This document shows positions 3,863 to 11,107 of a stretch of 11,461 bases of DNA, one piece after another (the first letter of the stretch is position 1; every line of letters starts with the position of its first letter). The position numbers and the translations under genes are program-made. Where the stretch lies: the UHGV virus genome UHGV-1556960, one strand, 5' to 3'. The notes beneath the pieces were generated by a model. That model did no database searches and had not been told where the DNA came from. It saw nothing but the letters and a program-made list of their open reading frames with translations. Source of the DNA: a virus.

Positions 3863-4072
3863 ATGGCTTTCATTCAACCAACCATCGACGACGTTAGACA
3901 TTGCTCTAACGCTTTATCTGTAGACCCTGCCGAAACCGACGCTGCCCGCGCCATTGCTGAACACTACTCAAAGATATCCAATCAGGAGTACCGCATCACC
4001 CAAGACGACCTGGATGACCTCACTGACACAATCGAATATCTCATGGCAACTAACCAGTTAGACTCACAATAA
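3863..4072 (+). CDS. coi: Coi, C1 inactivator, 69 aa
   Basis: 69-aa ORF immediately upstream of c1 on the same strand, with a GTGAGG SD. Size and position match P1 coi. Confidence 0.85.
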   Translation: MAFIQPTIDDVRHCSNALSVDPAETDAARAIAEHYSKISNQEYRITQDDLDDLTDTIEYLMATNQLDSQ

Positions 4073-5066: not shown

Positions 5067-6182
5067 TTATTCAGCCGCCACCGGTTTTAACAAGCCAGCA
5101 TCGAGCAGTTTACGCGTCAACCACTGTTGGCCTTTCCCCGTTAATTGGGGCGTCAGCCGTATCTGGTAGCCCTCTTCATCATCCAGCACCACTTCTTTCA
5201 CTGTGAAATATCCGGCGTTTATGTACTGCTGGAACGGCACATTTTTACGTCCACCGGACGCAATCAGAATGCCGTTCTCCCGTAACCAGGCAAACAGCGC
5301 ATTTTGTTTAAGTCCAACGACCTTTGCAAAATTCCCAATCAGGATCCCCTTAGCCACTGATACCCGGTCGGCAAAATCGACTTTGGGGGCTGCGGCCACC
5401 AGCTGCTGATTTAGCTGATGGGCTTTCTGTTCCAGAAGTTGCTTTTGTTCAGCCAGTTCGGCAGCAAGGCGCAGAGCTTCTGGAAGCGTCTGGGGGATTG
5501 CGATCGGTTGCTGTTCTTTTTGTCGGAAGTAGCTGTCTTCCAGTTTTTCAAAGAATGCCCATGCCTGATCGGTTTCGATCATTTTAGCGTGGCGGGCTGC
5601 GCCGCGTTCCGTCCAGAGGATGAGTGAGCGGGCTTTAGGAGAGATAGGATTTTGTGAGTTACTTAAAGTCACCCGCAAATTGTTCAAATCATCTCCAATA
5701 ACTTTATAGAAATGCTTGCCTTCACAAAAACGTTCAGCATTACGGGAAAAGTTCTTCTTGATGTTATCCGCATCTGTCCCATACCCCTTAGCAAGGATCT
5801 TAGTTGTCACTACACGCACTCCCAGCCATTCCAGAACGGGAATTTCATCAGACTGATTCTGAACAACCACCAGCTCCGATTCCTGAACTGAAGGTGCATG
5901 AGTTTTTTCTGATTTAACGTTAGTTGCTTTCATTCTGTGTGCCTCCTTGCGTGTTTCGGCTGCGACGGTTGCGTAATTCAGATGCCCCTGTTCGAGCAGG
6001 TATTCGCGGATATCAGACAACAGAATGCGGTGAACAGCGTTCTTGTCCTTTCTCCGGTAAAGTTGTTTGGTGATCATGAAGTAGTTGGCAATAACGCCCG
6101 GTATATCCCTGGTACTGATACAGGATGTGTGCTGTTCAATTGCCTCAATCATTTCTTCACGGGTGACTAATGACGTTCTCAT
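5067..6182 (-). CDS. ant1: Antirepressor (Ant1/Ant2-type), 371 aa, with an in-frame internal start giving a nested 288-aa product
   Basis: The C-terminal region (...FADRVSVAKGILIGNFAKVVGLKQNALFAWLRENGILIASGGRKNVPFQQYINAGYF...) looks like a phage antirepressor KilAC/ANT domain, and the middle resembles a Bro-N/ORF6N-type domain. The start overlaps the icd stop (ATGA), with AGGAGGG in the icd 3' end. An in-frame ATG at 5931-5933 is preceded by AAGGAGG; the two products would be about 41 and 32 kDa, as described for P1 Ant1/Ant2. Confidence 0.8.
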   Translation of the reverse strand: MRTSLVTREEMIEAIEQHTSCISTRDIPGVIANYFMITKQLYRRKDKNAVHRILLSDIREYLLEQGHLNYATVAAETRKEAHRMKATNVKSEKTHAPSVQESELVVVQNQSDEIPVLEWLGVRVVTTKILAKGYGTDADNIKKNFSRNAERFCEGKHFYKVIGDDLNNLRVTLSNSQNPISPKARSLILWTERGAARHAKMIETDQAWAFFEKLEDSYFRQKEQQPIAIPQTLPEALRLAAELAEQKQLLEQKAHQLNQQLVAAAPKVDFADRVSVAKGILIGNFAKVVGLKQNALFAWLRENGILIASGGRKNVPFQQYINAGYFTVKEVVLDDEEGYQIRLTPQLTGKGQQWLTRKLLDAGLLKPVAAE

Positions 6183-6400
6183 AGTCCCTCCTGAGCAGAA
6201 GCGTTAACAGGGAGGCACCAGTAACTGAGAGAGTTGCGCGAATCAGTGGAAAAGCGGGCAGAGAAAATGCAGGGAGCGTCAGGAAGCTGAGAACGGGCCT
6301 CATCTTCTGTCGGTGCAATAACGAAGTGATAGTGACGTTTCTGGCAGGAATAGAAGCGCCAAATGAATTCAGGATGAGTTGGGGTAGGGACAGTAGCCAT
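6179..6400 (-). CDS. icd: Icd-like small protein (cell division inhibitor family), 73 aa, translationally coupled to ant
   Basis: 73-aa ORF with an AGGAGG SD 8 nt upstream; its stop overlaps the ant start by 4 nt. Architecture matches the P1 immI icd-ant pair. Confidence 0.65.
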   Translation of the reverse strand: MATVPTPTHPEFIWRFYSCQKRHYHFVIAPTEDEARSQLPDAPCIFSARFSTDSRNSLSYWCLPVNASAQEGL

Positions 6401-6430: not shown

Positions 6431-6720
6431 GCTACCGCGTGAGGTCTCAATCTCAATGGCGGTAGCACTGACTGGGTTGAGACTACCGGCGTCAAAGGGA
6501 ACCGGCCTGCCTTTCGGCAGCCCAGCCAGCACTACCATTGATTTCGGAGCTAAACGCTACGTATGGCTGTGCGATGGCATGACACAAAAAAAGACGCTTT
6601 CGGCGTCTGTGTCGCCTTTGACATTATCCGGGGTCTCAATCCCGGCACCCGTTTTACTGAGGTGCCTGATAAGCATAAACCGAAAATGCCTCAAGGCGCA
6701 AGAGGTCAGGCTCAATGTAA
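6431..6720 (-). ncRNA. Leader/small-RNA region of the icd-ant operon with c4-like antisense features; exact RNA ends not determinable
   Basis: On the minus-strand transcript: a hairpin with UUGAGAC in its loop (plus 6628-6645), an intrinsic terminator (plus 6585-6608), the complementary GUCUCAA (plus 6477-6483), and an 8-bp-stem hairpin with AUUGAGAUUGAGACC in its loop (plus 6431-6466) about 30 nt before the icd SD. Confidence 0.4.
6585..6608 (-). terminator. Intrinsic terminator inside the icd-ant leader
   Basis: Minus-strand RNA AGACGC-CGAAA-GCGUCU followed by U7. Confidence 0.55.
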
Positions 6721-9522: not shown

Positions 9523-9975
9523 TCAGATACGTGCGGATGTGGCATTACCGTAATGACGGTGCTGACGGGCCACCTTATTGAAAAGTTGACGCGCCATTAC
9601 CCAAGGCTGGTGCTCCCGGCGTTCCTTTTCGTCCTGCGTCATATAGAGTTCGTTCTGGAGTTTTTCATCAAACCGGCGCGGAGCGCGGCTGCGGCGAAAG
9701 AATTCAGGATTCAGAGAGTGGATCTGAAATCTACGTGGGCGTGTACTGTCATCAATCAAAACAGACGAATACTTAGACACAGCGATAGCCTTTAAGCGCA
9801 GATAAACATCGCGCTTATCGACATCCAGATGCGGGTATTCCTTTTCAAGGATTGCTGCGAGTTCTTTCGCTGATAGAAGAGATTTAGTGCGGATCATGTA
9901 ATCCGCAATCTCATACGATGTAATTCGTGAGTGATTTATTTCCATGAAGTGGCGTCCCTGCCAGTTAAGTAACAT
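9523..9975 (-). CDS. lpa: Lpa-position protein (late promoter activator), 150 aa
   Basis: 150-aa basic ORF immediately upstream of pacA with a GGTGA SD, preceded by a promoter carrying a C1 operator. Assigned by position and size. Confidence 0.65.
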   Translation of the reverse strand: MLLNWQGRHFMEINHSRITSYEIADYMIRTKSLLSAKELAAILEKEYPHLDVDKRDVYLRLKAIAVSKYSSVLIDDSTRPRRFQIHSLNPEFFRRSRAPRRFDEKLQNELYMTQDEKERREHQPWVMARQLFNKVARQHRHYGNATSARI

Positions 9976-10012
9976 CCTGTCACCTACTGATTAGCCCATG
10001 TCAACTAATCAA

Positions 10013-10062
10013 CGACGAATATAATACCCTCGATTAAATAAATGGCAATACATTAGAGCAAT
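10013..10062 (-). promoter_or_regulatory. lpa promoter with overlapping C1 operator
   Basis: Minus strand ATTGCTCTAATGTATTG (plus 10046-10062; 14/17) overlaps a TTGCCA -35, with TATTAT as -10 after a 16-nt spacer. Lies between the stop of the 347-aa ORF and lpa. Confidence 0.5.
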
Positions 10063-10063
10063 T

Positions 10064-11107
10064 TTATCTAACGCTCGACGAGTGACTTGTGATAACGCCG
10101 ACTCCAAGCGCGTAATCAAAGAACAATCGTTGATGCATCGCCAGCCTACCGTGCGTCTTCTCCCAATTATCGCGGTCACGCTCAATATCACGCTGGCATG
10201 ACTGGCACAGAGGAATTGCGTAAATGTCATGCGCGCATAATCGACTATGACGAACGATATAAGGCGTAATGCGAGCGCCAGCTCCCGCAGCTCCACATCC
10301 ACAGCACGGACGGGAAGCAACAAAGTCCATGTACTCGGGTAATTTTAGCGATTGCAGTTTTGGTATTTTGAAATGCGCCGTGCCAGGGTCGGAGTCAACA
10401 TCCACAGGGCATACTTTTGCACGCATCGGCGCGGCGCGTTCTTCCATCATCTGAACATATGCTGTAGCGCGATCGTCATACGGGCGAATATCCGCCTCTT
10501 TCAAAGGTCCGCTATCCTGCGGAGCAGCCTTCATCTTATTTATTGATATGCGGCAGACTTCTTCCGGCATCAGGTGCATCATGTTGCGCATGAAAGCCCA
10601 CCAGCACAGCTCCTGAATACTTAAATCATGGCTATTTGAAAGGCCCATTTCCTGACGGGCGACATCCAGTATCCAGTTAACGCGATTATTATGCAGCGTT
10701 TCTTTCAGCTCATTAAAACCACGCATCCGGTAATGGTTATCGTGATGCCAGCACAACAACACCGCGCTATTGTCTCGTTCTGCGTGGACAATATGGTTGT
10801 CACACCAGCTACGATCTGCGGCCTGGCATTGCCCCTCTTTCCTGCGCAACCACGCCACCAGCGAGTCAATTCCACCAATACGGCGAAACAGTTCATCGCT
10901 GTTAAAAAACGGCTGCAACGCCTCATTTGTTGCCATGGTTTGCTCGGTAACAACGAGGCCGTCTTCCATGTGCTCGATTAACTCACGCGGCACCGGCTCC
11001 ATAATAAATTTACGGCCAGCCTCCACCAGCTTTCTGACCTCCTGATCCACTTTGAACGTGGCGAGGCCAAGCTCTTTCTGTACAAAGGGAGTAATTACGG
11101 CTTTCAC
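10064..11107 (-). CDS. 347-aa Cys/His-rich protein at the P1 PdcB position; possible HNH/DUF968-type nuclease-like protein
   Basis: Long minus-strand ORF with an AAAGGTG SD. Contains [23 protein letters not shown] and a C-terminal CCGCG...C..H..C..C cluster. Family assignment is tentative. Confidence 0.65.

Follow-up and report, generated by a model that had tools for sequence, protein, structure and literature searches.

Single-stranded 5' termini are required by RppH and RNase E, and this requirement is the accepted reason why the 5' stem-loops of ompA and papA stabilise their mRNAs (PMC3997798). The 5' UTR hairpins of ompA and papA are described as stabilisers by Emory, Bouvet, and Belasco 1992 and in related work, as cited in that article. 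Another described use of leader hairpins is control by CsrA. The glgC leader has an upstream hairpin site and a site over the Shine-Dalgarno (SD) sequence, the CsrB repeat reads CAGGA(U/A/C)G, high-affinity RsmE/CsrA sites present an ANGGAN hexaloop, and the bridging range is 10-63 nt (PMC7652899).

The window (the whole stretch of DNA analysed, 11,461 nucleotides) comes from a P1-like phage/plasmid, and over the 700 bases around the inverted repeat studied here, identity was 98.0% to P1 and 99.0% to the closest phage record. The repeat lies upstream of lpa, whose product is the single activator that switches on all P1 late genes, i.e. those for morphogenesis, packaging, and lysis. To our knowledge, control of lpa has so far been described only at its C1/Bof-repressed promoter. 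The locus contains the following features.

11107..10064, minus strand: pdcB (DUF968), first in the order that continues with Olpa, Plpa, lpa, pacA, and pacB.
10046..10062, minus strand: the C1 repressor operator Olpa (former Op94), ATTGCTCTAATGTATTG, annotated in AF234172 and M95666 and mapped by alignment.
10021..10048, minus strand: the sigma-70 promoter Plpa, with -35 TTGCCA (10048..10043), a 16-nt spacer, and -10 TATTAT (10026..10021).
10013, minus strand: the transcription start of the lpa mRNA, a G (M95666, 'Transcriptional initiation site of Pr94, G at 4030').
9523..9975, minus strand: lpa (gene 10, late promoter activator), annotated in P1 as 150 aa plus stop.
9943..9945, minus strand: the conserved ATG (Met11 of annotated Lpa), present in every relative.

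The start at 10013 is the M95666 position carried over by alignment. Plpa showed 10/12 matches in the promoter scan, the P1 records annotate identical hexamers, and Olpa controls the promoter of the hairpin-bearing transcript described below. The P1 records AF234172 and M95666 annotate operator, promoter, start site, RBS, and CDS at this locus, and no hairpin; a literature search, whose scope did not extend to the original papers (Lehnherr 1992, Lobocka 2004), returned no mention of an lpa leader hairpin.

The original prediction was that TGATTAG-N10-CTAATCA forms a 7-bp inverted repeat next to the ribosome-binding site of lpa. The perfect repeat was found on the minus strand at 10011..10005 / 9994..9988, within 9983-10013, and it does adjoin the SD of lpa. 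The distance had been given as 1 nt before GGTGA, however, and this figure needs correction: between the 3' arm and the SD lie 3 nt if the latter is read as GGTGA (9984..9980), or 2 nt if it is read as AGGTGA (9985..9980). A gap of 1 nt to AGGUGA is reached solely by the stem in RNA, which G·U pairs extend to 9987. Matched exactly, the 24-nt pattern occurred once in the window and in 0/200 shuffles, which is a trivial test. When perfect 7-bp repeats of any sequence were counted, with loops of 3-12 nt, the window contained 26, compared with 7.6 +/- 3.3 in first-order Markov resamples; thus, a 7-bp repeat is not by itself exceptional here.

We folded the RNA from the mapped start and from an alignment of relatives. 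Three hairpins were predicted.

9987..10012, minus strand: hairpin 1, 5' arm 10012..10003, loop GACAUG 10002..9997, 3' arm 9996..9987.
9966..9986, minus strand: hairpin 2, arms 9986..9978 / 9974..9966, loop GGA 9977..9975.
9950..9963, minus strand: hairpin 3, UGGC 9963..9960 with GCCA 9953..9950, hexaloop AGGGAC 9959..9954.

The perfect DNA repeat is the core of hairpin 1. The RNA from the mapped start reads G-UUGAUUAGUU-GACAUG-GGCUAAUCAG, with a 10-bp stem, a 6-nt loop, and one unpaired 5' nucleotide; the AU-rich stem contains three G·U pairs and 2 G-C pairs. Hairpin 1 was both the MFE and the centroid structure, and its helix begins at +2. The 28-nt RNA folded with -9.3 kcal/mol (z = -4.05), and 1/200 shuffles folded equally well. 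The terminator scan showed no intrinsic terminator at 9987-10012, where the stem with its 2 G-C pairs is followed by UAGGUGAC; hairpin 1 is not an intrinsic (Rho-independent) terminator, which has a G+C-rich stem and a U run. Over the lpa leader, Rfam covariance models gave no match at the gathering threshold, and a permissive Rfam scan gave chance-level matches only (E = 3 and E = 9). A long-range, imperfect 24-nt pairing of 9923-9946 with 9997-10020 was also considered and rejected; it was absent from the MFE and centroid folds, and its arms, read by eye, do not look complementary in relatives.

Two promoter-like sequences that involve the hairpin 1 loop were rejected as well. TTGACA in the P1 loop has no -10 partner to act as a -35 element, and relatives do not keep it. 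On the plus strand, ATGTCA-16-TATAAT (9998..10025, antisense to Plpa) takes the hairpin 1 loop, which is not conserved in relatives, as its -35; the number of such sites equalled the chance expectation.

Conservation across P1-like phages had been named as a check on the repeat. The comparison comprised 13 distinct leader types from P1, phage JK004, Salmonella and Klebsiella plasmids, and metagenomes, with Lpa proteins 67-100% identical. Close relatives were nearly identical to the P1 leader and hence uninformative for covariation. The divergent Lpa proteins (67-82% identity) were drawn from a protein collection and from phage and plasmid records, and their loci were aligned; protein-guided viral and metagenome scans returned mostly 99-100% identical P1-type loci, which were useful for the population test only. 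All 13 types share the C1 operator core, the -35, the 16-nt spacer, and a -10 of TATTAT or TATCAT, and the distance from the -10 to the conserved ATG is almost constant (76-82 nt). Hairpin 1 is present at the same place in 13/13 leader types, with different arm sequences. The arms include TTGATTAGTT/GGCTAATCAG and those listed here.

TTGGTTGAG/CTCAACCAA: Klebsiella type.
TTGGTTGGG/CTCAACCAA: phage JK004.
ATTGGCTGA/TCAGCCAAT: L098.
TTGGTTGACC/GGTTAACCAA and TTGGTTAACC/GGTTAACCAA: L094, L227.
TGGTTAGTC/GACTAACCA: Salmonella arizonae plasmid (L308).
ATTAGCTGAG/CTCGACTAAT: Salmonella Newport plasmids.
GCAGCTTAAGC/GCTTCAGCTGC: L100.

RNAalifold, run unguided on the MAFFT alignment, predicted exactly hairpins 1, 2, and 3. 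In hairpin 1, changes had occurred on both sides in 9/10 pairs, and 93.8% of the cells were paired. For the three-hairpin structure as a whole, 0/500 shuffles reached the paired fraction, the number of compensatory pairs, the number of compensatory cells, or the covariation score, and 1/500 reached the count of further pair types; pairing fell from 96.9% to 17-50% when partners were shifted by 1-3 columns. The 13 leaders are kin, and some of the compensatory changes are shared by descent. Ten hairpin 1 arm variants each folded alone (z between -3.3 and -5.5) and left 0-2 unpaired 5' nucleotides, the starts of the relatives being predicted from the -10 spacing; the P1-type hairpin was the weakest of the set. 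The hairpin 1 region was at the same time the least conserved primary sequence of the locus, with a pairwise identity of 0.55-0.68 (arms 0.62-0.68), compared with 0.65-0.95 for coding sequence and 0.90 for the operator, and its loops (5-10 nt) were not conserved. This comparative evidence places hairpin 1 far above chance level. Since pairing is kept while the sequences of the relatives change, it is very likely that hairpin 1 has been selected for its structure and not its sequence, i.e. that the repeat is a selected RNA hairpin.

As judged by alignment, only leaders from the clade whose Lpa is at least about 67% identical have the element. The lpa loci of the D6 type (~31% Lpa identity) and the Pantoea type (~23%) have unrelated leaders that could not be aligned. 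A scan of contigs (596 Gb) with the pattern TGGCAGGGACGCCN{3,6}ATG was too unspecific to be of use, as it returned 120 chance matches (L104-L223) in unrelated bacteria.

Variation within the P1-type population was counted in 71 haplotypes from 210 loci.

Hairpin 1 stem arms: 0/22 sites variable.
Hairpin 1 loop: 1/6 sites variable, the sole hairpin 1 variant.
Promoter spacer, -10, and discriminator: 16/29 sites variable.
Whole leader, hairpin 1 to hairpin 3: 2/63 sites variable.
Coding sequence after the leader: 18/125 sites variable.

The stem arms of hairpin 1 differed from the promoter region (Fisher p = 1e-5) and the leader from the coding sequence (p = 0.02); the loci are related and overlap between scans, and these p-values are indicative. 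In the same 71 haplotypes, the Plpa spacer (10027-10042) was hypervariable, with 10/16 variable sites, and 4/7 sites varied in the 7-nt discriminator (10014-10020), while operator and leader were nearly fixed. The window carries ATTCGTC, the rarer form of the discriminator among P1-type haplotypes.

Hairpin 2, UAGGUGACA-GGA-UGUUACUUA, was predicted both by the single-sequence fold of the first 120 nt and by RNAalifold. It encloses the annotated SD AGGTGA (9985..9980) and the annotated lpa ATG (9975..9973), its loop region in the window is CAGGAUG, and 15/19 of its columns were invariant in the 13 leader types. G·U pairs account for 25/91 of its cells; therefore, hairpin 2 pairs only on the sense strand (100% paired, compared with 72.5% antisense). 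Hairpin 3 was likewise predicted by both methods, with 11/12 columns invariant. The sole variant of its loop, AAGGAC, still contains GGA, and within the loop is an SD-like AGGGA, which precedes the conserved ATG at 9945 by 9 nt.

The leader types differ in the annotated start codon. ATG 9975 is missing in 8/13 types (ACG in three, AAG in one, and a 1-nt deletion in four), and in one more, that of the S. arizonae plasmid L308, it is out of frame owing to insertions. The loci that lack an in-frame upstream ATG are L088, L094, L097-L100, L226, L227, and L308, whereas P1-type, JK004-type, and Salmonella Newport-type leaders possess one. The stretch from 9975 to 9945 is conserved at the nucleotide level and non-coding in most relatives. 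Gene calls in the relatives begin at the downstream ATG and give proteins of 139-142 aa, and the Pfam BPP1_LPA domain starts at residue 15 of the 150-aa P1 Lpa. Since ATG 9975 is absent in 8/13 leader types and ATG 9945 is universal, the family-wide start of lpa is probably ATG 9945, and the first 10 residues of the 150-aa Lpa annotated in P1-type records may not be ancestral. In P1, the AGGUGA in front of ATG 9975 is a good SD, yet hairpin 2 encloses this SD as well as the ATG. An 11-codon uORF, MLLKLARTPNT, begins at the upstream ATG of L308 (Salmonella arizonae plasmid CP053320.1), and its TGA overlaps the lpa ATG as ATGA; this arrangement looks like translational coupling.

Two roles had been proposed for the repeat: a site bound by a protein, or an RNA hairpin with an effect on lpa translation. 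Compensatory changes in the relatives, together with a stem that lies within the transcript from +2, support an RNA hairpin. Covariation alone cannot separate an RNA stem from a DNA palindrome, since hairpin 1 pairs nearly as well on the antisense strand (89.1%, as a palindrome would give) as on the sense strand, and the dyad symmetry in the DNA is perfect. A palindrome bound by a dimeric protein at +3 to +26, acting as a roadblock or as a second lpa operator, is nevertheless highly improbable: the arms have turned over almost completely, at nearly every position, among phages with a common C1 operator and promoter layout, the half-site distance varies with the 5-10 nt loops, the helix runs on through G·U pairs that are possible in RNA only, and the P1 records annotate no such site. 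The repeat is also unlike the 17-bp asymmetric C1 operator; it contains no ATTGCTCTAATAAATTT-like sequence, and the operator lies separately at 10062..10046. A DNA site could also be sought in the adjoining hairpin 2, as a recognition site for Lpa itself in autoregulation. P1 late promoters have a palindromic -22 box, which reads AAGTGACTT, AAATGACTA, AAGTTACTT, and ATGTGACTT (the late promoters compared, in L103, were LPhot, LP23, and LPpac), and the hairpin 2 arms AAGTGAC and GTTACTT (9967-9986) look like it. The leaders of relatives carry AAGTGACAG and P1 carries ATGTTACTT; measured against a AAGTGACTT-like 9-bp box followed by 4 nt and a -10, the relatives are box-like at 7/9 positions and ATGTTACTT fits the degenerate consensus, and the L226 leader AAGTTACTTTACTGG is identical to LPhot AAGTTACTTTGCTGG at 14/15 positions. 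However, a 7/9 match in the 36-nt block is expected by chance at ~7% (our own estimate), and at the 4-nt (or 9-nt) late-promoter spacing the leaders have GGCAGG or GGACGC and no -10. Because no -10 element follows the box-like sequence, the lpa leader is, on sequence grounds, not a P1 late promoter. The likeness, moreover, concerns hairpin 2 and not hairpin 1, and we consider an Lpa site here most unlikely.

Among RNA functions, an effect of hairpin 1 on initiation at the annotated start, by occlusion or positioning of the AGGTGA SD, would be in line with an extended stem that ends 1 nt before AGGUGA, with the complementarity of AGGUGA to the 3' end of 16S rRNA, and with the in-frame upstream ATG of P1-type, JK004-type, and Salmonella Newport-type leaders. 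Hairpin 1, however, does not contain the SD and pairs with itself, hairpin 2 being the structure that sequesters SD and ATG, and all the leader types in which ATG 9975 is lost or out of frame keep hairpin 1. Modulation of translation through the adjacent SD is thus unsupported in the form proposed, and we regard it as unlikely; hairpin 1, standing as it does at the very start of the transcript, is more suggestive of a part in mRNA stability than of SD occlusion. Hairpin 1 adjoins hairpin 2 with 0-2 nt between them, and it might instead serve mainly as a structural partner that keeps the 5' leader clear of hairpins 2 and 3, with lpa controlled by CsrA or another protein that binds GGA loops. 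A CsrA dimer would then bridge hairpins 2 and 3, cover the SD of the conserved ATG, and repress translation of lpa, and hairpin 1 would keep the untranslated, repressed mRNA alive, in which respect this possibility overlaps with mRNA stabilisation. Several findings agree with it: (i) hairpins 2 and 3 are nearly invariant although the stretch is non-coding in most relatives; (ii) the hairpin 2 loop region reads CAGGAUG, CAGGACG, or CAGGAAG, as does the CsrB repeat, and its only hypervariable column is the degenerate position of that repeat (the 1-nt deletion leaders read CAGGAG); (iii) AGGGAC or AAGGAC on the 3-4 bp stem of hairpin 3 corresponds to the ANGGAN hexaloop; and (iv) 19-21 nt separate the two GGA motifs, a spacing inside the bridging range, and the layout resembles the glgC leader (motif definitions, range, and layout from PMC7652899). 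Both hairpins thus carry the loop motif of CsrA sites. On the other hand, GGA is also simply SD-like, and an SD displayed in a loop needs no CsrA; hairpin 2 (7-9 bp) is more stable than typical CsrA hairpins, its loop in P1's own fold is only a GGA triloop, and the motif match was found post hoc. The second GGA lies within AGGGA, 9 nt before ATG 9945, and would overlap the SD of lpa should P1 use that start. A literature search for CsrA binding to the lpa leader, or for its csrA-dependent expression, found none. That hairpin 1 is mainly a structural partner in such a control element is, in our opinion, doubtful. That the leader may be a control module of the CsrA type (or for another reader of GGA loops), with Lpa starting at Met11 and the annotated start misplaced, is slightly easier to accept, and we put it forward tentatively, with the odds against it. 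Such a leader, in which a covarying, protective 5' hairpin precedes two GGA-loop hairpins of invariant sequence, would couple Lpa synthesis to the physiological state of the host and help to time the P1 early-to-late switch, and the annotated SD and ATG would be part of a regulatory hairpin and not a normal initiation site.

The reading we prefer is that hairpin 1 acts as a stabiliser at the 5' end of the message. The lpa mRNA made from C1-repressed Plpa begins with a stem-loop whose core is the inverted repeat. Because the stem starts at +1 or +2, protection of the lpa mRNA from 5'-end-dependent decay is proposed: with 0-2 unpaired 5' nucleotides, hairpin 1 would deny RppH and the 5'-end sensor of RNase E a single-stranded end, so that the message for the P1 late-gene master activator would live longer. 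Hairpin 1 also forms the first module of a three-hairpin leader in which hairpins 2 and 3, conserved in sequence and not only in structure, probably carry regulatory information. From the position of hairpin 1 alone, we infer a stabilising role with a probability of roughly 0.5. Because RNase E is also able to attack mRNAs internally, a hairpin at the 5' end may be of no consequence to the lpa message. Published reports describe altered lpa transcript levels in hfq and dksA hosts; this evidence is circumstantial, as it shows only that the abundance of the transcript responds to host factors.

A conserved, structured leader would add a second, post-transcriptional layer to lpa control, so far undissected. 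It also bears on annotation, since Lpa is given as 150 aa in hundreds of records for P1-like plasmids and prophages whereas relatives start 10 codons later, and P1-derived tools and phagemids that depend on lpa expression could be tuned through the leader element.

The window also contains a C4-family RNA. Rfam matched a C4 antisense RNA at 6455-6542 (75 bits) and an isrK RNA at 6587-6665 (59.5 bits), both on the minus strand just downstream of pacB, followed by a 73-aa ORF and a 371-aa ORF6N + KilAC antirepressor (ORFs 6179..6400 and 5067..6182). An immI-like antirepressor module thus lies between pacB and c1 here, while P1 annotates c4 RNA in immI, far from pacB. Antisense pairing of C4 or isrK with the lpa leader was rejected, as the complementarity extends over only 7-8 nt, about chance level. 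The 3' strand of P1 C4, CCCUGUCACGUCCUGCCACC (L103 3344-3420), has an 8-nt complementarity to GUGACAGG in the leader (9950-9985) and is nearly complementary to UGGCAGGGACG also, in swapped order; since that strand is normally paired within C4, this is probably chance.

Compared with known systems, the lpa leader resembles the C4 antisense RNA that controls icd-ant translation in the P1 immI region, in being a post-transcriptional element of a P1 regulatory gene made of short structured RNA near a ribosome-binding site. The C4 loops, in contrast, base-pair with a and b target sites, and neither target site, TTGACAG or GTTAGTGA, occurs in the lpa leader. The likeness to glgC is confined to hairpins 2 and 3 and does not include hairpin 1; these two show GGA in the loop, with the downstream site over the SD-like AGGGA. 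Unlike glgC and CsrB, P1 itself has an ATG in the hairpin 2 loop, and compared with CsrA SELEX ligands the hairpin 2 stem is longer and the loop shorter, CsrA binding being putative. The closest likeness of hairpin 1 is to the 5' stem-loops of ompA and papA. It lies at the very 5' end of the primary transcript with at most 1-2 unpaired nucleotides (one in P1; members of this class have their stem within about 2 nt of the end), its sequence is free to vary provided that pairing is kept, as the compensatory changes and low arm identity indicate, and lpa meets the same RppH/RNase E machinery in the same host. It differs from ompA and papA in being followed directly by two more conserved hairpins, and in that the P1-type stem is AU-rich and only moderately stable, its stabilising role being one that we infer. 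Hairpin 1 is thus best filed as a 5'-terminal mRNA stem-loop, a known class, within an undescribed three-hairpin leader of a classic regulatory gene.
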